NCBI GenBank assembly: GCA_018696395.1
Contig: JABHQR010000012.1
Location: 11,841 to 75,840, forward strand
Origin: an archaeon
GTDB lineage: Archaea > Nanobdellota > Nanobdellia > Woesearchaeales > GW2011-AR9
Reading direction: 5' to 3'
DNA: 64,000 nucleotides
In this document: in pieces, positions 4,939 to 63,750 of the stretch
Layout of the letters: each line of letters opens with the position of its first letter
How positions within the stretch are numbered: the first letter of the stretch is position 1
Translations under genes and position numbers: made by a program
The notes under the pieces: generated by a model
What the model saw: the letters and a program-made list of their open reading frames with translations, nothing else
Told to the model about the DNA's origin: nothing
Database searches by the model: none

Positions 4939-5727
4939 ATGCATTATAAAAGGAAAGGTATACCAGAAGAGGATGAGATTGTCCTTTGTAAGGTAACTAA
5001 AATTTTTCCAAATTCTGTTTTCGCTGATTTATTAGAATATAATGATTCTGGTATGATTCATATCTCTGAAGTATCTCCTGGTAGAATCAGAAACATTAGG
5101 GATTATGTTAGTGTTGGTCGACAAGTTGTTTGTAAAGTTCTAAGAATTGATCGTGAAAAGGGACATATTGATTTATCTTTAAGAAGAGTTAACACTCATC
5201 AAAGAAGAGAAAAATTAGAAGAAATTAAACAAGAACTTAAATCTGAAACTTTGATAAAAAATTTAGCAAAAAAAATTGGGATTCCTGATAAAAAATTGTA
5301 CGATTTAATTAGTAAACCTGTTTTTAATGATTATTCTCATTTACATCTTTTTTTTAGGGGTATTGTTTCTGGTGATGTTAATCCAGAAGAACAAGGTATT
5401 GATAAAAAAATATCAGATGAATTAGTAATTGCAGTAAAAGAAAAATTTAAAGAACCAAAAGTTTTATTTCAAGGTGTAATATATCTACATACTTTTGATG
5501 TTAATGGGCTAGAAAAAGTACAAAAAGTTTTAACTGAAGTTGAAAAAATTTCTAGTAATTTAACAGTAACTTATTTGGGTGCAGGTAAGTATAAATTTAT
5601 TCTTGAAGAAAAAGATTATAAAATTGCTGAAAAATATTTGAAAAATATTCAAGATATACTTGAAACATTCAATGATAAAATTTCAACTTCTGAGTTTACA
5701 CGTAGAAAAGCTGAAATTGAAAATTAA
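4939..5727 (+). CDS. eif2a: translation initiation factor 2 alpha subunit (aIF2alpha)
   Basis: N-terminal S1 domain (EDEIVLCKVTKI...GMIHISEVSPGRIRNIRDYV), 262 aa. Position matches the conserved L44e-S27e-aIF2a-Nop10 cluster. Confidence 0.85.
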   Translation: MHYKRKGIPEEDEIVLCKVTKIFPNSVFADLLEYNDSGMIHISEVSPGRIRNIRDYVSVGRQVVCKVLRIDREKGHIDLSLRRVNTHQRREKLEEIKQELKSETLIKNLAKKIGIPDKKLYDLISKPVFNDYSHLHLFFRGIVSGDVNPEEQGIDKKISDELVIAVKEKFKEPKVLFQGVIYLHTFDVNGLEKVQKVLTEVEKISSNLTVTYLGAGKYKFILEEKDYKIAEKYLKNIQDILETFNDKISTSEFTRRKAEIEN

Positions 5728-5751
5728 CAATAACAACAAACAATTATCAAA

Positions 5752-5928
5752 ATGAAACATATCCTGTTCTGTTCTGAATGTAAGAAATATTCTATGAAAG
5801 AAGAATGTCCTAATTGTAAAAATAGAACTGTTCTTGCCAAACCACCAAAATATTCTTCTAAAGATAAATATGATGGATATCGAAGAAAAGCTAAAGAACA
5901 AGAATTAAAAGAAAAAGGATTGTTGTAA
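5752..5928 (+). CDS. nop10: H/ACA ribonucleoprotein Nop10
   Basis: Hand-called 58-aa ORF: MKHILFCSECKKYSMKEECPNCKNRTVLAKPPKYSSKDKYDGYRRKAKEQ, a Nop10 zinc ribbon plus KYxxKxxRR tail, immediately after aIF2alpha. Confidence 0.75.
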   Translation: MKHILFCSECKKYSMKEECPNCKNRTVLAKPPKYSSKDKYDGYRRKAKEQELKEKGLL

Positions 5929-5941
5929 GAATAATTAAAAA

Positions 5942-6403
5942 TTAAACTTTATAATTGGATGGATCTTCTACAAACGCAATAACTTCATTTAGTATTCTGT
6001 AAGCGTATGTGTGGACATTATTTCTTAAATTGTTTGTTACTTTTGGAAGAAGTTGTAATTCTACTGTATAACCATCTACTCCTACCCATACATTTGAACA
6101 TTCTTCGAATTTAGCTTTATCAGCTTCTTCAACACCCATTATGTTTGGATCATTAAATCCTCTTTGTGTTTGATAATCTACTTCAGAATCCACTAATGAT
6201 GTTTTTTCTTCTAATAATTCAATAAGTTCATCTTTATTTAAATTTGAAATATTTCCAGCATATTTTGCATCAACTAAGTACCTAGAAAAAGTCATTCCAT
6301 CTGGAGCTAAATAATCAACCACTCTGTTAATACCTTCCATTTTCATACATAAAGTCCCTTGTGGTAATTTTCTAATATTTCTTAAAATGTTTTGATTATT
6401 CAT
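5942..6403 (-). CDS. hypothetical protein
   Basis: 153-aa ORF convergent with nop10. No recognisable motif. Confidence 0.4.
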   Translation of the reverse strand: MNNQNILRNIRKLPQGTLCMKMEGINRVVDYLAPDGMTFSRYLVDAKYAGNISNLNKDELIELLEEKTSLVDSEVDYQTQRGFNDPNIMGVEEADKAKFEECSNVWVGVDGYTVELQLLPKVTNNLRNNVHTYAYRILNEVIAFVEDPSNYKV

Positions 6404-55495: not shown

Positions 55496-56266
55496 TTACC
55501 ATCTTCTTTTTATTATTCCTTTCCTAGTATGAATCTGTAATTCTCTATGTTCTGGAATTATTAAGATTTGTCTTGAACAAACATTATCATTTGTTTTGAA
55601 CATTTCTATGATATTAACATTATGATTATTACAACATTTAATTAAGTCACTGTTATAGGTATCTTCAAATTCTAAAAGATAAGCTTTAACCTTTCCTTGA
55701 AAATGACTTAATATATAATTCATAAATTGATTAATATTTGCATTAGGTGGCATATGACTTAATCCTACAATATTATTCTGAACTAAAATGAAAGCTCTGC
55801 ATTTATAATATCCATATGAATATAGTGGTTTGTTTGAAACAATGGCATCTGTTTGGTTAACTGTTGATCCTGCGGTAACTAGTGTTGCATCATAATTATT
55901 TTTGACATAAGCTATAAAATTGTTTCTTTCTGAAATTTCTATCTCATGATTAAAACCTTTTAATTCAACTGGATTTTTTTTTGATAACTTGATAAGTTCT
56001 CCAATATAACCTTTACATTTATCTGGTTCTTGTTTATATCTGTCGATACTTCTAATTTCTACAGCTATGAATTTTGTTCTTTTTACAATCTCTTTTTCTT
56101 TCTCTCTTTTTGCTTTTCTATACAATTTTAAATTTTGTTTTTTTAAATCAACTATTAACTTTTTTACTCTCTCTTGATTATTGTCTTCTAAGGCTTGTTT
56201 TAACAAAATAGAACGTGATTTAATATAACTTAACATATCTTTGGCAGTGTTTTCCATATTATTCAT
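55496..56266 (-). CDS. hypothetical protein
   Basis: 256-aa ORF, no recognisable family. Confidence 0.4.
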   Translation of the reverse strand: MNNMENTAKDMLSYIKSRSILLKQALEDNNQERVKKLIVDLKKQNLKLYRKAKREKEKEIVKRTKFIAVEIRSIDRYKQEPDKCKGYIGELIKLSKKNPVELKGFNHEIEISERNNFIAYVKNNYDATLVTAGSTVNQTDAIVSNKPLYSYGYYKCRAFILVQNNIVGLSHMPPNANINQFMNYILSHFQGKVKAYLLEFEDTYNSDLIKCCNNHNVNIIEMFKTNDNVCSRQILIIPEHRELQIHTRKGIIKRRW

Positions 56267-56449
56267 AAGGGGGAAGCAATGAGTTAGGTTATTTAAAATT
56301 AATTAAAATTAATTTTTATTATCTTCTTTCTTATCCACTCCAATATGACTTTTACTGAACTAATTATTCTAGAACAACAATATTTATAACTTCTAATAAT
56401 GAAGTTTTCCTTATACTTATATAGGGTGAGCTATAAACAACAAATTCAA

Positions 56450-57256
56450 ATGGCAAGAATAATCTTCTTAGGAACTGCAGGAAGTAACTCTGTATTAGCA
56501 AGAAATTTACGTTCTTCTGGAGGGATTATTGTTCAACTTGACGAACTCCAATTACATCTTGATCCTGGACCTGGGGCATTATCTCAAGCTGCAAAGTATG
56601 GTGTGAATTTAAGAAATAATACTGCTGTGCTTGTTACTCATAAACATTTGAATCATTGTAATGACCTTAATTTAGTTGTTGAAACAATGAGTTATTCTGG
56701 TTTAGAAAGAAGGGGTGTATTACTTGCTTCAAAATCTGTAGTAAGAAACGTTGAAGAGGAACATCCTTTCTTAACAAGATATCATCAAAATTTCTTAGAA
56801 AAAATTATTGTTATGGAAAAAGGTAGTAAAGTTGGTGTTGAACTTGTAGAAATCAATTCTTTACCAGTTGAACATAAAGATCCTCATGCAATTGGGTTTA
56901 AATTATTTTTCCCAAAATTTGTGTTAAGTTATACAGGCGATACTGCTTACAATGAAGAGCTTGTTGATGAACTTGCTGGTACTGATATTTTAATTTTAAA
57001 TGTTCCTTACCCTGGTAAAGAAGGTAAAGGATTAAACCTTGATACTGAATCTGCAATAAAAATCATATCTAAAGTAAGGCCTAAACTGGTTGTATTAACG
57101 CATTTCGGTTTAGAGATGTTAAAAGCAGATCCAATTCAAGAAGTTCGTGAAATTCAAAGAGTTACTGGTGTTCAAACAGTTGCTGCAAAAGATGGATTAA
57201 CGCTTGTCCCAGGTTCTTATAATATGAGTCATTCTCCTGTAAAAGGTTATTATTAG
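56450..57256 (+). CDS. metallo-beta-lactamase-fold hydrolase (start probably the internal ATG at 56450; ORF opens at 56399)
   Basis: MARIIFLGTAGS N-terminus, His-rich VLVTHKHLNHCNDL block, later TGDTAY and VVLTHFG, all consistent with the MBL fold. Confidence 0.55.
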   Translation: MARIIFLGTAGSNSVLARNLRSSGGIIVQLDELQLHLDPGPGALSQAAKYGVNLRNNTAVLVTHKHLNHCNDLNLVVETMSYSGLERRGVLLASKSVVRNVEEEHPFLTRYHQNFLEKIIVMEKGSKVGVELVEINSLPVEHKDPHAIGFKLFFPKFVLSYTGDTAYNEELVDELAGTDILILNVPYPGKEGKGLNLDTESAIKIISKVRPKLVVLTHFGLEMLKADPIQEVREIQRVTGVQTVAAKDGLTLVPGSYNMSHSPVKGYY

Positions 57257-57263
57257 AAATAAC

Positions 57264-58007
57264 TTATTTCTTTGCTTCTTTCCACATTTGATTGAAAAAT
57301 TCTCTATAAGAATCACTTAATTGTTTAGATGTTATTATTACTGCAACAGGTTCTGGTTTTAATGTGAAATTTAAAATGTTATCTCCTAAAATTATTACTC
57401 CAATTGGGGCAGCTGGAACAAATTTAAATTTTGGTGTTTCAAACTTAGAATAATATCTATATTTGTTAACTTGTTTTCTGAACTTTTCATTAACTATAAA
57501 CTTAACTTTATATCTCTTAATGGCTCTTTTTTTCTGTAGTTCTCTGAAAAATAGTTTTGTTTCATTAGAATCATCTTTTTCATAACCTGGTGGGAAACCG
57601 ATATAATCTGAACCTTTAGGTAAATTGTCCATACAGTAATTGAACGCATTGTATAATCCTTTCCATCCTTTGAATACTTGTGCTTCTTGTTTTTGTTCAA
57701 CTTGAACTCTTCTTTCAATCAGTTTTGGAACCAGTTCTTCAACTTTTTCTTTTTTATCTTGGATGAACTGGATAAGATTTTTTGGATCAGTTGTTGAAAA
57801 ATATTTTCTTTTACCTTTCTGAATGTATGTCACTAATCCATGCTTAATTAATTTGTTTAAAGCATTGTAAACTACTGAATTTTGTAACTCTGACTTTTTG
57901 ATTAAAGGTCCTGAAGTGGTTTCTCCCAATTCTAATAAGGATATATAAATTTTAATCTGGCCATTAGTTAATCCAATGTCTTTTAGGACTGATGTGTCGA
58001 TTTGCAT
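57264..58007 (-). CDS. TrmB-like transcriptional regulator
   Basis: N-terminal HTH LTNGQIKIYISLLELGETTSGPLIKKSELQNSVVYNALNKLIKHGLV. 247 aa. Confidence 0.6.
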   Translation of the reverse strand: MQIDTSVLKDIGLTNGQIKIYISLLELGETTSGPLIKKSELQNSVVYNALNKLIKHGLVTYIQKGKRKYFSTTDPKNLIQFIQDKKEKVEELVPKLIERRVQVEQKQEAQVFKGWKGLYNAFNYCMDNLPKGSDYIGFPPGYEKDDSNETKLFFRELQKKRAIKRYKVKFIVNEKFRKQVNKYRYYSKFETPKFKFVPAAPIGVIILGDNILNFTLKPEPVAVIITSKQLSDSYREFFNQMWKEAKK

Positions 58008-58040
58008 GTTATTATCTTATCTCTCATGTTATTTAAACTT

Positions 58041-58058
58041 TTCTCCTAAAAAGGAGAA
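58041..58058. promoter_or_regulatory. perfect inverted repeat TTCTCC-TAAAAA-GGAGAA in the divergent intergenic region between the TrmB-like gene and the 58129 operon; candidate operator
   Basis: Palindrome read directly. Lies between divergently oriented genes. Confidence 0.3.
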
Positions 58059-58128
58059 TAAATATTTATATGGCCCGTCAGTTACTACTTATTCATAACA
58101 AAAACATAATGAAAGGGGTAAGGGAAAA

Positions 58129-58677
58129 ATGGAGAATTTAGAAGAACAAATCAGAAAATTTAGGAGTATTGTTGATACAAGAAAAAATGAACATATTGCT
58201 AATGAGAATAAACTAGCTCCTAAAATTGACAATGCAATAATTTTGGGAACGGAAGCAATGGCTTGGTTAAGAGATTATGAATCTCAAATGTATGATACTG
58301 TAAGGGATGCTTTAGCAGTAGATAACTATGGGGGTGGATTAAGTATATATTCACCAAAACCAGATTGTAATGGTATGTGCTATTGGAAGTTAGTTTTATG
58401 TCCAGAATTAAAAGTTTTTTCATATGATAAATTTACAAGATGTGGGCCATTTGATTTGACTAATAAAGGTACCTCTGATGTGATTGTACATCCTAACAGA
58501 AAGCAGACTTTGTATTTAGGTTTAGAGGTAGAAACTTATGGCATGGAAGGATTTCAAGAGAGGGTTATAAGATTTACAGGTCATAATTTAAGGGACTTAA
58601 AAAGAAAAGGTCGTGAAGATTTTTCTACTTTTTTAAAGTCAAAAGGTGTGTTAAATTCACCTTATAATATTAGGTGA
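58129..58677 (+). CDS. hypothetical protein, first gene of the repeat-family operon
   Basis: 182-aa ORF with SD GAAAGGGGTAAGGG upstream. Its stop overlaps the next start (ATGA). Confidence 0.4.
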   Translation: MENLEEQIRKFRSIVDTRKNEHIANENKLAPKIDNAIILGTEAMAWLRDYESQMYDTVRDALAVDNYGGGLSIYSPKPDCNGMCYWKLVLCPELKVFSYDKFTRCGPFDLTNKGTSDVIVHPNRKQTLYLGLEVETYGMEGFQERVIRFTGHNLRDLKRKGREDFSTFLKSKGVLNSPYNIR

Positions 58678-58937
58678 TCAAAATGAATAAAGGGATGTAT
58701 TTTGCAGGAATAATGGCTGGAACAATGTTTGGACATGTTTTGTTTGATCATGTTAGAAAGAATGATTGTTTGGAGGGGAAGGTTGAAACTCAGGAAATTT
58801 ATCAACCACAAATCTCTCAGCCATATGACTCTCAATCACAAGGAGGGTTTGAGATTCATAGTTTAGAATCAGATTATGATATTGGGATTCATACTGGTGA
58901 AAATCAAATACCAGTAATTATGATTTACGAGGAATAG
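58674..58937 (+). CDS. small protein with one N-terminal TM helix
   Basis: 87 aa, start overlaps the upstream stop. Hydrophobic GMYFAGIMAGTMFGHVLF. Confidence 0.35.
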   Translation: MIKMNKGMYFAGIMAGTMFGHVLFDHVRKNDCLEGKVETQEIYQPQISQPYDSQSQGGFEIHSLESDYDIGIHTGENQIPVIMIYEE

Positions 58938-58940
58938 AAA

Positions 58941-59747
58941 ATGGAACAAGAAAAATTAGAAAACAAATTATTTTACTCAGTTGTAGAATCTTTAGGATAT
59001 AATCCTAGCAAAAGAGAAGTACTTCATGCTTATCAAACCGGTATTAATGAAGCTCAGGCTATTGCAGATAAAGGATTTAATGCAACTTGTGAGGATTATA
59101 GTTATGGGATTAAGAATATCCTGGAAGAGAATGAATTATGGTATCAAGCTTTCATTAAAGGTTACCAGCATTTTGCAAATCAAGGGGTAAACGAGGACTT
59201 AAGTATTTTATTTTCAAATGTTATGTGTCTACTTCATGATAGAAATGATAGACTTAAGTCTGAATCAAATGGTGTATACTCTCAGGATTCTTGGTTTGGA
59301 CAAGATCTAAGACAAAAGGAAAGAAGAAATGTTGATTTTTATCAATCTATTTTAGATTTAGGAAATAATCCAACTAAAAGAGAAGTTCACAATACTTTCA
59401 GTAGTTGGTGTAGGGAAGCGGATAGTATGGTTGATGAATTTTTACAAGTAGATCTACAAGATCAATTCAGTGAATATGTTCATGAAACTGTAAGATGGCG
59501 TCATGCTTTTATTATGAGGTATTCTCATTTTGTAAAATATGACCTGAATAAAGAAGTTTCAAATTTATTTTCTAAGACTCTTGCCTTATTAGGAAGTAAA
59601 AAAGGAATAGTTTGTTATGGGGATCGTGACTCTGATAATCTCCCAAGAAAAAGAAGAAAGAATTTTGATCGAGAAACAAATTATCGAAGAGAAATAATGG
59701 CTCTTGGTGAAAAATGGAGGTTACAAAATGAAATCGCAAAAGAATGA
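58941..59747 (+). CDS. protein with two copies of an uncharacterised ~100-aa alpha-helical repeat (family member 1)
   Basis: Copies begin KLFYSVVESLGYNPSKREV... and VDFYQSILDLGNNPTKREV..., each ending in a HF[AV][NK]Y.LN.[DE][LV]S block. Confidence 0.5.
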   Translation: MEQEKLENKLFYSVVESLGYNPSKREVLHAYQTGINEAQAIADKGFNATCEDYSYGIKNILEENELWYQAFIKGYQHFANQGVNEDLSILFSNVMCLLHDRNDRLKSESNGVYSQDSWFGQDLRQKERRNVDFYQSILDLGNNPTKREVHNTFSSWCREADSMVDEFLQVDLQDQFSEYVHETVRWRHAFIMRYSHFVKYDLNKEVSNLFSKTLALLGSKKGIVCYGDRDSDNLPRKRRKNFDRETNYRREIMALGEKWRLQNEIAKE

Positions 59748-60480
59748 TTTTTATCAATCAGTATTAGAAATGAACTTGAATCCTACTAAAAGAAATGTTT
59801 ATACTGCTGTTGATGTGGGATTAAAAGAAGCACAGTATATGGCAGAAGATTGTTATTGGTCTGATTTCTTAAATCCTTTAGAAGAAATGTTAGGGCAGTG
59901 TATAACTTTTCGACATGGAATTATTACTGGTTATGAACATTTTGTAAAATATAACCTTAATGAAGATTTAAGCAATTTGGTTTTAAACACAGAACTAATG
60001 TTGGGTCTTAAACATGATTCAATTACTAGTTCTCGTTTAGATGATTTTTTTGATCGTGAATCTCATCCTAAAATGTCATCTATTTTTGAACCAAAAAGAG
60101 CTAAGTTAGAAGATAGTTTATTCTATCAATCTGTTTTAGGTTTAGGTCCTAATCCTGACAAAAATGATGTTGCAAAATCTTATCTTATAGGGATTAATGA
60201 AGCTCAATGTCTAATTAATGGGATTTACTCCGCAGAAGAAGATTCTGAATTTAGGTCTTTACTTAAAGATTTGATCAACTGGCGTTATGCACATATCAAC
60301 GGATATCAACATTTCATGAAATATGGTCTTAATAATAATCTTGGTGTTGTTGTATCTGGTACTAAGGCTCTGTTACAAAATCAAAAAAAGAAAGTTCGTG
60401 ATCGTAAATTTGATGAAATGATGGTAAAAAAATGGAAACAAGAAGAGGAGGATGAAGAAAATGAAATCGCAAGAAAATGA
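59704..60480 (+). CDS. protein with two copies of the same repeat (family member 2; likely start at the MKSQ codon ~59728)
   Basis: Copies begin NDFYQSVLEMNLNPTKRNV... and SLFYQSVLGLGPNPDKNDV.... The start overlaps the upstream gene's ..NEIAKE stop in another frame. Confidence 0.5.
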   Translation: MVKNGGYKMKSQKNDFYQSVLEMNLNPTKRNVYTAVDVGLKEAQYMAEDCYWSDFLNPLEEMLGQCITFRHGIITGYEHFVKYNLNEDLSNLVLNTELMLGLKHDSITSSRLDDFFDRESHPKMSSIFEPKRAKLEDSLFYQSVLGLGPNPDKNDVAKSYLIGINEAQCLINGIYSAEEDSEFRSLLKDLINWRYAHINGYQHFMKYGLNNNLGVVVSGTKALLQNQKKKVRDRKFDEMMVKKWKQEEEDEENEIARK

Positions 60481-60871
60481 TTTTTATCAAACTGTTTTGG
60501 AATTAGGACACAATCCAGGAAGAAGGAGTGTGATCAACGCATATCGTGTGGGAATAAGGGAAGCACAAAGTATAGCAGATAAAGTGTGTGATGCTTATTC
60601 TACTGATGACTTTATTGATTTAAAGAAAGAGTATATTACTTTGAGAAGAGCTTATGTTGCTGGATTAAGTTATTTTGTTAAGTATGGTGTTCAAAAAGAT
60701 TTAGATATATTAATGTTAAATACTGTTAGTATGATACATATGAGGAGTGGCTTAATCAGGAATGAAGAATTTTATAAGGGTATTCAAAGTATTGCTGAAT
60801 CTGAAAAAAAAAGAAAGCAAGAAGAATCAAAAGATGAAGAACTGGATACCGAAAGTAATTTGGTAAATTGA
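60452..60871 (+). CDS. single-repeat member of the same family (family member 3; likely start ~60461)
   Basis: MKSQENDFYQTVLELGHNPGRRSV...SYFVKYGVQKDLDIL. Overlaps the previous gene's ..ENEIARK stop exactly as at the preceding junction. Confidence 0.5.
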   Translation: MKKMKSQENDFYQTVLELGHNPGRRSVINAYRVGIREAQSIADKVCDAYSTDDFIDLKKEYITLRRAYVAGLSYFVKYGVQKDLDILMLNTVSMIHMRSGLIRNEEFYKGIQSIAESEKKRKQEESKDEELDTESNLVN

Positions 60872-60913
60872 ATAATAACAGAAATGTAAAAAAGATGAAT
60901 GAAAATAAAAAAA

Positions 60914-61819
60914 TTAAATGAACATTCCAACTAACCAAACTAACCCTAGCCCTACAAAACACCCTGCAGAAACGAAAGGCATTGCTGGGTAGTATTTATC
61001 TTTTTTAGCTAATCTGAACAAGATGTACAAGGATAAGGTTGTTGCTAATGATACAAGTAAACTTAGTTTCATTCCGAAATCAATCATTACAACTCCAGTA
61101 AACATTAATGGGAAAGCTATGTCTCCTCCACCTAATATTGCGGTAGATGTTTTTACTGGAACTTTTTTGTCGTGGATTTCACTTGTGTGCTTAACTACAC
61201 TTTTTCCTTTTTTCTTATCTTCACTTCTAATGTAAGGAATAGCAATTCCAGCAAATAAATTCATCTTAGATTGCGCTTTAGCCATCTTAACCATATGTTT
61301 GGATTGCCAAACTGCATAAGCATCATAAATTGAAATGGCAACTAATAAAATGGAAATTGAAGTTAGGTTAAATACTGGTATCAAAATTACTGCAATCCCT
61401 GGATAAATTAATATTTCAGTTACGTTGTGTACTATTGGATTGCTTTTGAATATTTTCCAAACACCTAAAATTGTTGCAACAATAATGCTAATTGCCTGGT
61501 TAAAGAATGCTCCTATTGATGCACTTATGGCCAATATTGATGCCATTAAAAATGCAAATTTCCAAAATATGAATAGTTTGAATTTTATTACTAAAAAGAA
61601 TATTGCAGTACCCAAAAATACCATTAATAATATCGGAATGTAAGAACTGTTTTGTTCAAAGTCTGGGCTTTCTCCGATCGGAAGTGCGTTCATTACTAAC
61701 ATTCCTTCAAGTTCTGTTTGTTCATAATTAATATACTCATTCAGTATAACTAATCCCAATAATTGTGTTACTAAAAACAGTCCTAATAATAGAAAAGTGA
61801 TTGTTTGATTGTGTTTCAT
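60914..61819 (-). CDS. presenilin/signal-peptide-peptidase-family intramembrane aspartyl protease (A22)
   Basis: Multi-TM protein with YD (AISIYDAYAVW), GxGD (ILGGGDIAFPLMF) and PAL-like (PAMPF) motifs in the correct order. Confidence 0.7.
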   Translation of the reverse strand: MKHNQTITFLLLGLFLVTQLLGLVILNEYINYEQTELEGMLVMNALPIGESPDFEQNSSYIPILLMVFLGTAIFFLVIKFKLFIFWKFAFLMASILAISASIGAFFNQAISIIVATILGVWKIFKSNPIVHNVTEILIYPGIAVILIPVFNLTSISILLVAISIYDAYAVWQSKHMVKMAKAQSKMNLFAGIAIPYIRSEDKKKGKSVVKHTSEIHDKKVPVKTSTAILGGGDIAFPLMFTGVVMIDFGMKLSLLVSLATTLSLYILFRLAKKDKYYPAMPFVSAGCFVGLGLVWLVGMFI

Positions 61820-63128: not shown

Positions 63129-63239
63129 TGCTCAGATCGCATAATTTGGTATTGCGCTGGACTGCTATATCTTTCATAAGCAATCTTTGCAGCCATCCAG
63201 TTTCCTTTTGGATATCTGGGTTCAAATCCCAGTCTGAGC
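63129..63239 (+). tRNA. tRNA-Ser (anticodon GCT), class II, with a 27-nt canonical 37/38 intron (~63166..63192)
   Basis: Hand fold: acceptor GCTCAGA/TCTGAGC plus G, anticodon stem CTGGA/TCCAG with loop CTGCTA|A, 15-nt variable arm, T arm CTGGG-TTCAAAT-CCCAG. Confidence 0.6.
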
Positions 63240-63297
63240 GTATTACCTTTTTTTCTTTACCCAAAACTTAATATACATCGATTCTCTTCTTTTAGTT

Positions 63298-63750
63298 ATG
63301 GCTTTTAAGGAAGTAACTCAAGAAAATCCTGATTTTTATTTATGTTATAGTTCTAATGGTAAATTGGGTGCGGTGTTCCCTGCTAAGCCAGAAATTGCTG
63401 CTGCTTTTGCAAGAGCTGGTTTTACTAAAATGACACCAATTTTATTTTGGGTCCATAACACCAATAAAAAAATGAGGTATCGAGAGGGGGGTTGTGATGA
63501 GTTATTATTTATTTGGGCAGAGATTCAAGCAATGTTCAGGGATTTTACATTTTCAGATAATCAGTTAATTGCATTTGGTTGGTGGTTAAGTCATACTCAC
63601 ACTGAGAACAATAATTTTCATAACCATTTTTTACCATATTACTCGCATAATAATTATCATATTTCAAAAGCCCATGCAATTAACATTGAAGCTGTCCTTC
63701 ATGAATTAAAACCTGCAAAAGGTTTTTTTGAAAGGGTCTTGGGGATTTAA
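63298..63750 (+). CDS. hypothetical protein (paralogous N-terminus with the next gene)
   Basis: 150-aa ORF. N-terminal ..ENPDFYLCYSSNGKLGAVFPAKPE.. parallels the downstream ORF's ..NNPDFYMHADSRNNISAFYPLKED... Confidence 0.4.
   Translation: MAFKEVTQENPDFYLCYSSNGKLGAVFPAKPEIAAAFARAGFTKMTPILFWVHNTNKKMRYREGGCDELLFIWAEIQAMFRDFTFSDNQLIAFGWWLSHTHTENNNFHNHFLPYYSHNNYHISKAHAINIEAVLHELKPAKGFFERVLGI

Follow-up and report, generated by a model that had tools for sequence, protein, structure and literature searches.

A 64-kb stretch of archaeal DNA (contig JABHQR010000012.1 of GCA_018696395.1, positions 11,841 to 75,840; hereafter the window, to which coordinates refer unless another locus is named) contains, at 58129-60871 on the plus strand, an array of five genes, g1 to g5, the last three of which encode five copies of a ~110-residue repeat. 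These repeats are a new protein family of very narrow distribution and a known kind of fold, in an unusual layout that splits the repeat array over coupled genes. Comparison with related loci shows them to be old paralogs, each kept as a distinct positional ortholog, and shows the repeat genes to be under purifying but relaxed selection. The products of g3, g4 and g5, translated from a single regulated transcript, may combine into a hetero-oligomeric helical scaffold or adaptor, a reading that we favour tentatively and weigh below against its alternatives.

Members of the DPANN archaea have many lineage-specific 'dark' genes, which are a suspected basis of their symbiotic lifestyle, and few of these genes have a fold assignment. 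The analysis presented here converts an orphan block into a defined family, with domain boundaries, a three-helix-bundle model, six homologous lineages, a conserved regulator, putative operator and leader, and measured constraint, and it removes as unsupported an attractive interpretation of the array as toxin-immunity genes.

The five repeats and their predicted fold

An initial annotation made from the sequence described five same-strand open reading frames (ORFs) that end in three overlapping genes with five repeat copies; the ORF list confirms the genes, and blastp, hmmsearch and alignment reproduce the copies, their consensus and their 2 + 2 + 1 distribution. The gene g3 (58941-59747, 268 aa, with a basic/charged tail) contains repeats R1 (58941-59276, residues 1-112; hmmsearch independent E-value, i-E, 6.6e-42) and R2 (59310-59636, residues 124-232; i-E 8.6e-43), g4 (59728-60480, 250 aa from an ATG that begins MKSQ, with an acidic tail) contains R3 (59725-60051, residues 1-108; i-E 1.2e-43) and R4 (60094-60423, residues 123-232; i-E 9.5e-45), and g5 (60461-60871, 136 aa, also with an acidic tail) contains only R5 (60452-60787, residues 1-110; i-E 3.1e-45), all on the plus strand. 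Copies are 30-40% identical to one another (blastp, E 1e-15 to 1e-24), and Smith-Waterman z-scores calculated against 300 shuffles range from 22 to 37 for all 10 repeat pairs, so the similarity on which the proposed family depended holds statistically. When a profile hidden Markov model (HMM) was run on the six-frame translation of the window, it returned exactly five domains (i-E 1e-42 to 1e-45); hmmsearch found no sixth repeat in the window, the next-best match having E > 1.

Sequence searches of Pfam, NCBIfam, PHROG, PADLOC and the Protein Data Bank (PDB) with g1-g5 and 14 family members gave nothing significant, which bears out the predicted novelty of the repeats and leaves no known housekeeping Pfam domain among their matches. 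Several weak candidates were considered and rejected. A HEPN assignment fails because the Rx4-6H motif is absent, the Arg (of WR) and His (of HF) lying 9 residues apart with neither invariant, and because the structural model has three helices rather than a four-helix bundle. The PADLOC CARF_HEPN profile matches only 2 of the 14 members (E 0.004), PDC-S05 matches only two of 14 repeats (the first repeat of g3 and its ortholog) over ~35-45 residues at E 1.6e-4 to 8e-3, and matches to Cmr5 are not family-wide.

The structure prediction of one repeat that had been proposed as a check was run with AlphaFold2. Given the five window repeats only, it produced an unconvincing model (predicted local distance difference test score, pLDDT, 69.6); given 12 repeat units, it produced a confident three-helix bundle for R5 (pLDDT 90.7, predicted template modeling score 0.78). 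In this model a short N-terminal helix (residues 8-13) that bears a conserved FY is followed by a loop with a conserved NP and then by three long helices (residues 21-44, 48-74 and 78-109). The repeat domain is thus predicted to be a long three-helix bundle of the size of a spectrin repeat, a fold that is too common to point to a function, and a search of the BFVD collection of predicted structures with the repeat model returned no match. The proteins encoded by g3-g5 are acidic (isoelectric points, pI, 5.4-5.9), lack hydrophobic segments, have charged tails and look cytoplasmic.

The spectrin repeat itself (PF00435) is a ~106-residue antiparallel three-helix bundle, which the repeat model resembles in size and topology; sequence identity is only 1-13% and there is no profile match. 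The window repeat differs in having the extra short N-terminal helix with its conserved FY..(L)..NP motif, in being separated from the next repeat by ~12-25 residues rather than by a continuous helix, and in belonging to an array that is split over three genes of a prokaryotic host. These segments between repeats consist of charged runs plus Gly, Ser and Pro, a composition that argues against a helix continuing from one repeat to the next; the model itself covers one repeat. The likeness to spectrin is most likely convergence on a common fold. A search of the literature for spectrin-like repeats in archaea, and for DPANN metagenome-assembled genomes from Saanich Inlet, found nothing relevant. 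A prokaryotic precedent is EzrA of Firmicutes, described as a spectrin-like regulator of cytokinesis whose cytoplasmic part consists of five linear triple-helical bundles and which has an N-terminal membrane anchor (PMC4243239). The window array also has five bundles, and the small protein encoded alongside them begins with a hydrophobic helix. EzrA is an analogy only; it is a single polypeptide with its own transmembrane anchor, and the window array has no division genes nearby. PhoU (PF01895) was also compared; there is no profile match, no pst or phosphate genes are found nearby, and spectrin-type repeats score higher.

Distribution, history and selection

Homologs of the repeats were sought with HMMER in an exhaustive comparison against 1.84 billion cluster representatives, which gave 13 matches. 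Six of these are true family members: P0001 and P0002 (the window's own g4 and g5), P0004 (a g3 ortholog in locus L008), P0005 (a g4 ortholog in locus L010), P0006 (234 aa, two repeats) and P0010 (127 aa, one repeat). The others (P0007-P0009 and P0011-P0014, E 1e-13 to 1e-4) are long repeat proteins with cystatin (x12), IQ, FIVAR (x4) or NB-ARC annotations, whose E-values are artefacts: such a protein matches the short helical profile weakly but many times over, and the scores add up; the FIVAR-like resemblance ('AIDEAQAILDK') is limited to one short helix. The exhaustive search revealed no further paralog clusters, and the window has a single locus. A k-mer-indexed homolog search recovered nearly nothing, and relatives emerged only by exhaustive HMMER. 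A search of genome contigs with the repeat profile had no match, the species of the window evidently not being among the GTDB representatives; a profile of the adjacent regulator then recovered locus L007. Pattern scans could not use two of the alignments (A2 and A3) because of their divergence.

Information on the hosts comes from transcription factor B (TFB). The TFB of locus L006 falls into a cluster (>=90% identity) together with proteins that carry the label Woesearchaeota or Nanoarchaeota, and it shares 77% identity with the window TFB; therefore, as judged from source names, the hosts are DPANN archaea of the Woesearchaeota type. A wide search with an HMM built from the repeats, as the initial annotation had suggested, yielded about six true clusters, and the family is restricted to a few related lineages of marine archaea of the Woesearchaeota type.

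The related loci differ from the window in instructive ways. L006, a 77-kb Joint Genome Institute (JGI) contig, and L007 come from one organism, which GTDB lists as the representative 'archaeon isolate SI037S2_bin4'. L006 contains a homolog (80% identity) of the window's divergent TrmB-like regulator, a divergently oriented g2 homolog (62%), a 236-aa two-repeat gene that is 27-30% identical to g3 and g4, and a tightly coupled one-repeat gene (119/124 aa) that is 28% identical to g5, for a total of three repeats as opposed to five in the window; the flanking genes differ from those of the window on both sides. In L010 (GCA_046766275.1) the conserved leader is followed by a 128-aa orphan and then by g2-g5 orthologs, and L009 has a near-identical leader, with the one-repeat gene P0010 as the first gene after it and a g3-like gene with an ATGA overlap as the second. 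In L008, the gene in front of the g3 ortholog is an unrelated helical ORF (at least 268 aa), and another, different gene precedes the two-repeat gene of L011 and L012. From these comparisons, the core of the module is the coupled repeat genes, with g2 a frequent but not universal member and the first cistron variable.

A tree built from 13 repeat units places every repeat of the window beside the ortholog that occupies the same position in L008 or L010, the two being 66-79% identical. At the level of whole genes, the g3 orthologs (P0004 of L008, and that of L010) are 67-69% identical to g3, the g4 ortholog P0005 of L010 is 68% identical and the g5 ortholog of L010 is 72% identical. Because orthologs share 66-79% identity and paralogs only 30-38%, the 2 + 2 + 1 arrangement predates these lineages, and the recent tandem duplication proposed from the similar gene ends did not survive this comparison.

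Selection on these genes was estimated as dN/dS (the ratio of nonsynonymous to synonymous substitution rates) by the Nei-Gojobori method, with dS of the repeat genes at 0.3-0.8 and so not saturated. The ratio is 0.08 for the TrmB-like regulator and 0.10 for TFB, 0.19-0.30 for g2, and 0.26-0.41, 0.40 and 0.28 for g3, g4 and g5, respectively, with 0.46 for the two-repeat gene of L006 and L011. The repeat genes therefore evolve 3-5 times faster than their neighbours, and between the window and L006 the repeats retain ~28% identity, with the regulator and TFB near 80%. A separate strain contig (L001, equivalent to window 58594-61025, at 2.4x coverage) has only three single-nucleotide polymorphisms relative to the window, at 59884, 59907 and 59923; all fall within 40 nt in the first repeat of g4, and one creates a nonsense codon, E53*.

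Two genes precede the repeat genes in the window. The first, g1 (58129-58677, plus strand), encodes a 182-aa protein (pI 8.3, 4 Cys) that, as had been noted, is an orphan: it matched nothing in Pfam, PHROG, PADLOC, NCBIfam or PDB, and a k-mer search of 5.8e9 proteins returned only g1 itself. Viral collections contained no relative of g1, of the slot-1 protein of L010, of the repeats or of the regulator. The gene is absent in L006 and replaced in L010 by the unrelated 128-aa orphan. Across four lineages, the gene that comes first after the conserved leader is a different one each time (g1, the 128-aa orphan, g2 and a one-repeat gene). The first cistron thus appears to be an exchangeable accessory slot and not a partner that the repeats need.

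The second gene, g2 (58683-58937, plus strand), encodes an acidic protein of 84 aa, counted from the ATG. It starts with a hydrophobic, Gly-rich helix (residues 4-22) and ends in a conserved C-terminus, ..EIHSLESDYD.G....QIPVIMIYEE. Its homologs lie directly upstream of repeat genes in L006 and L010, and its Shine-Dalgarno (SD) element and start region are conserved although the gene in front has been exchanged. The earlier description of g2 as a small transmembrane protein stands in part, as the N-terminal helix exists but is only moderately hydrophobic, leaving membrane insertion plausible but uncertain.

Gene junctions and the control region

The five genes are separated by +5 (g1/g2), +3 (g2/g3), -20 (g3/g4) and -20 (g4/g5) nt, and the reading frames of g3, g4 and g5 step 0 -> 1 -> 2. 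The g3/g4 overlap (59728-59747, ATGAAATCGCAAAAGAATGA) and the g4/g5 overlap (60461-60480, ATGAAATCGCAAGAAAATGA) are each 20 nt long and dual-coding on the plus strand, with the junction sequences ..QNEIAKE* / MKSQKNDFYQ and ..ENEIARK* / MKSQENDFYQ. Within the 3' ends of the upstream genes there are SD-like elements at all four junctions (in order, AGGTGA, GAGGA, GGAGG and GAGGAGG); at the two overlapping junctions the GGAGG (59716-59720, encoded by the Trp-Arg codons TGG AGG of g3) or GAGGAGG lies 7-8 nt before the ATG. These junctions are not frameshifts introduced by assembly, because the window sequence is the same in independent NCBI and JGI assemblies and identical 20-nt overlaps with their SDs occur in the orthologous loci L008 and L010. 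The window sequence corresponds to contig JABHHE010000004.1 of GCA_018671675.1 and occurs in many marine samples.

The stereotyped junctions predicted from the sequence are therefore real, and their origin can be proposed. Over 45 nt around the two junctions, the DNA is 87% identical, as is expected of a dual-coding segment, and the remaining repeat DNA has no detectable similarity. The shared C-termini of g3 and g4 are not a functional motif; they result from reading, in another frame, the codons for the conserved N-terminus MKSQ(K/E)ND of the gene that follows. The upstream gene of L006 ends straight after the Trp-Arg codons (TGG AGA TAA), and the next ATG (MGIQEN..) follows 6 nt on, which indicates that the 20-nt overlap of the window lineage arose by loss of a stop codon (TAA -> TTA) and read-through into the next gene.

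This tight packing makes co-translation probable, in line with the coupling that had been suggested. The literature lends indirect support: among co-directional genes that overlap or lie close together, subunits of heteromeric complexes are over-represented 4.5- to 8-fold (PMC10666635; PMC6728339), the enrichment being 8-fold in Haloferax (PMC10666635). The genes studied here resemble such translationally coupled pairs in being co-directional, in the overlap of stop and start, and in having an SD inside the upstream gene (PMC6728339; PMC10666635). They differ in the length of the overlap, which is 20 nt at this locus and <=8 nt in those studies: termination-reinitiation has been demonstrated for overlaps of -4, -1 and -8 nt (PMC10666635), and longer overlaps, above 8 nt, are uncommon and were not covered by those studies (PMC10666635; PMC6728339). 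The g1/g2 and g2/g3 spacings fall inside the coupling range of -8 to ~+10 nt, and both 20-nt overlaps fall outside it.

Upstream of g1 lies a gene on the minus strand (57264-58007, 247 aa), whose product has a TrmB-type N-terminal winged helix-turn-helix (Pfam PF01978, 44.7 bits relative to a cut-off of 25.6, E 1.2e-11). This winged helix-turn-helix and a coiled coil occupy residues 6-108; the N-terminal regions of TrmB and TrmBL2 in PDB match at E 1.6e-4 to 1e-3, with all matches ending at about residue 108, and the remaining C-terminal ~140 residues match nothing in NCBIfam or PDB. The sugar-binding C-terminal domain of TrmB and TrmBL1 was not found, and the NCBIfam models for TrmB, TrmBL1 and TrmBL2 score 19-27 bits relative to cut-offs of 500-650. 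The regulator thus appears to be TrmB-like in its DNA-binding domain only.

The region between the regulator gene and g1 (58008-58128), which is shared by both directions, contains putative control sequences and the 5' leader. A perfect palindrome, TTCTCCT-N4-AGGAGAA (58041-58058), is located between two TATA-like boxes, TATTTAAA on the plus strand (58030-58037) and TATAAATA on the minus strand (58063-58070), and a conserved leader block, GTTACTACT, follows on the plus strand (58081-58089). The palindrome (as TTCTCC-N4/6-GGAGAA), TATA-like boxes and leader are kept in L006 (alignment A6), and the leader is also kept in L009 and L010 (alignment A7), so that four lineages share it (GTTACTACT...AAAGGAG..ATG; window 58078-58131, L010 14-72, L006 9706-9757, L009 1-44). 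We infer operator and promoter roles for the palindrome and the TATA-like boxes. The leader RNA has no structural signal (z -1.6) and no Rfam match, and a scan of the locus for bacterial promoters and terminators was at chance level, as expected in an archaeon. The array and the regulator are adjacent in both loci with a readable neighbourhood (the window and L006/L007), and the predicted presence of a divergent TrmB-like regulator gene is borne out by the PF01978 match and by the conservation of regulator, palindrome and leader in a relative. From their spacing and synteny, g1-g5 are probably co-transcribed as an operon.

Possible functions and neighbouring genes

These features are consistent with a model in which the TrmB-like protein would bind the palindrome and control both divergent promoters, one polycistronic mRNA would be translated by coupled, SD-assisted initiation or reinitiation, and the three repeat polypeptides would be made together in fixed proportion. 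The g3, g4 and g5 products could then assemble into a hetero-oligomeric helical scaffold or adaptor; in lineages that have g2, the hydrophobic helix at the start of the g2 protein may anchor this assembly to the membrane. Of the two functions first suggested for the array, a set of immunity proteins and a lineage-specific adaptor family, the second is the survivor. If the repeat proteins do form a membrane-linked scaffold similar to spectrin or EzrA, they would be a rare archaeal example of such an architecture. Several observations weigh against this proposal and keep our confidence in it on the low side of even. The predicted structure covers a single repeat and no assembly; g2 is not adjacent to the repeat genes in L008, L009, L011 or L012, and its hydrophobic helix is weak (Kyte-Doolittle 19-residue maximum of 1.05); the 20-nt overlaps differ from the lengths for which reinitiation has been demonstrated, and strong SDs could initiate independently; and the fast evolution, variable first cistron, narrow range and one-strain nonsense allele fit a conflict system as well.

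Such a defence- or toxin-type conflict module would have the first cistron as a variable effector, the helical proteins as sensors, adaptors or neutralisers, and the TrmB-like protein as a repressor that silences them all. It would account for the same leader preceding four different first cistrons and for the unrelated upstream genes of L008 and of L011 and L012, as well as for a repeat-gene dN/dS 3-5 times that of the neighbours, an extremely narrow phyletic range, the change from three to five repeats between lineages, the nonsense allele of g4 in one strain and the different flanks of the window and L006. We nevertheless consider it unlikely, as searches of PADLOC, PHROG and the toxin and immunity families of Pfam matched none of its components, L006 keeps its repeats without any extra first cistron, changes of the first cistron are not accompanied by changes in the repeats, the regulator and TFB are equally conserved, selection is purifying overall, and the locus has neither a compositional anomaly nor a viral or mobile-element signature.

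Another improbable alternative is that g3-g5 encode regulatory partners of the TrmB-like protein, acting as co-repressors, anti-repressors or signal-sensing modulators in an autoregulatory loop. The adjacency of regulator and repeat genes has been kept in the window and in L006/L007 although both flanks have changed, the operator-like palindrome between them is shared and conserved, and the unmatched C-terminal domain of the regulator could bind a partner. However, five non-redundant paralogous domains are many for a modulator, and the unequal rates of change between the window and L006 (80% identity for the regulator, 27-30% for the repeats) are unusual for tight partners. Archaeal TrmB-type regulators, moreover, commonly adjoin an operon that they control without binding its products.

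A broader version of the conflict hypothesis, which we regard as slightly less probable again, is a previously unknown archaeal conflict or host-interaction module in which a TrmB-like repressor guards a transcript with an exchangeable orphan effector cassette as its first cistron, followed by a fast-evolving sensing or adaptor scaffold of five spectrin-like bundles on three co-translated polypeptides. Proof that the first cistron is such a cassette would make the locus the founding example of a new conflict system.

It is very unlikely that the array encodes the immunity proteins, and g1 the toxin, of a polymorphic toxin system. Immunity arrays also consist of tandem small paralogs with lineage-specific copy number, and the window has tandem small helical paralogs behind a protein of no recognizable family. 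When ORF 58129 (g1) was checked for toxin-like features, it was found to have none: there is no toxin, delivery or secretion domain and no homolog. L006 lacks g1 and L010 has another gene in its place, yet g3-g5 retain 67-72% identity, so there is no co-variation of toxin and immunity genes. In addition, each repeat has a stable positional ortholog, two domains are fused in one polypeptide, the single array is syntenic with a housekeeping-like regulator, there is no link to viral contigs, and the repeats match no known immunity-protein family in Pfam or NCBIfam.

Least credible is a single five-repeat polyprotein produced by programmed +1 frameshifting at both junctions, since the features that would suit it (frames of 0 -> +1 -> +2, repeat spacings of ~136 and ~119 aa across the junctions compared to ~122 and ~124 aa within genes, conserved junctions with an SD-like element upstream, and the stop context A-AAA/GAA-TGA-TTT) are set against a canonical SD and properly spaced ATG that suffice at each junction, dual coding of the next N-terminus that fully accounts for junction conservation, the simple TAA stop ahead of the ATG in L006, the lack of a slippery P-site codon of known +1 type, and single- and double-repeat genes that stand alone in L009 and L011.

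Among the genes around the array, one for a presenilin-type signal-peptide peptidase lies downstream and is convergent on g5. On the other side, a gene for a metallo-β-lactamase-fold protein (56399-57256, plus strand) adjoins the TrmB-like gene in the window and not in L006; the protein is similar to RNase Z or to cyclic-nucleotide phosphodiesterases, with a precomputed Pfam match to Anti-Pycsar_Apyc1 (PF23023) and every NCBIfam score far under its cut-off. Two orphan ORFs, at 55496-56266 (minus strand, 256 aa) and 63298-63750 (plus strand, 150 aa), have no Pfam or NCBIfam match. A search for rRNA in the window found none, and a tRNA match of 111 nt (63130-63240, plus strand) probably contains an intron, as is common in archaea. 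Just past the 3' end of the window (L002/L003, 14379-20411) are genes for a protein with a guanylate/adenylate-cyclase domain and for a NosD/beta-helix protein of more than 1000 aa, the latter typical of the large surface proteins of DPANN archaea. In L006, a free-standing 219-aa ORF (5564-6223, minus strand) beside the histidyl-tRNA synthetase gene has a LAGLIDADG-like motif, YLAGVIDGDGTISI, and may be the relic of a homing endonuclease.

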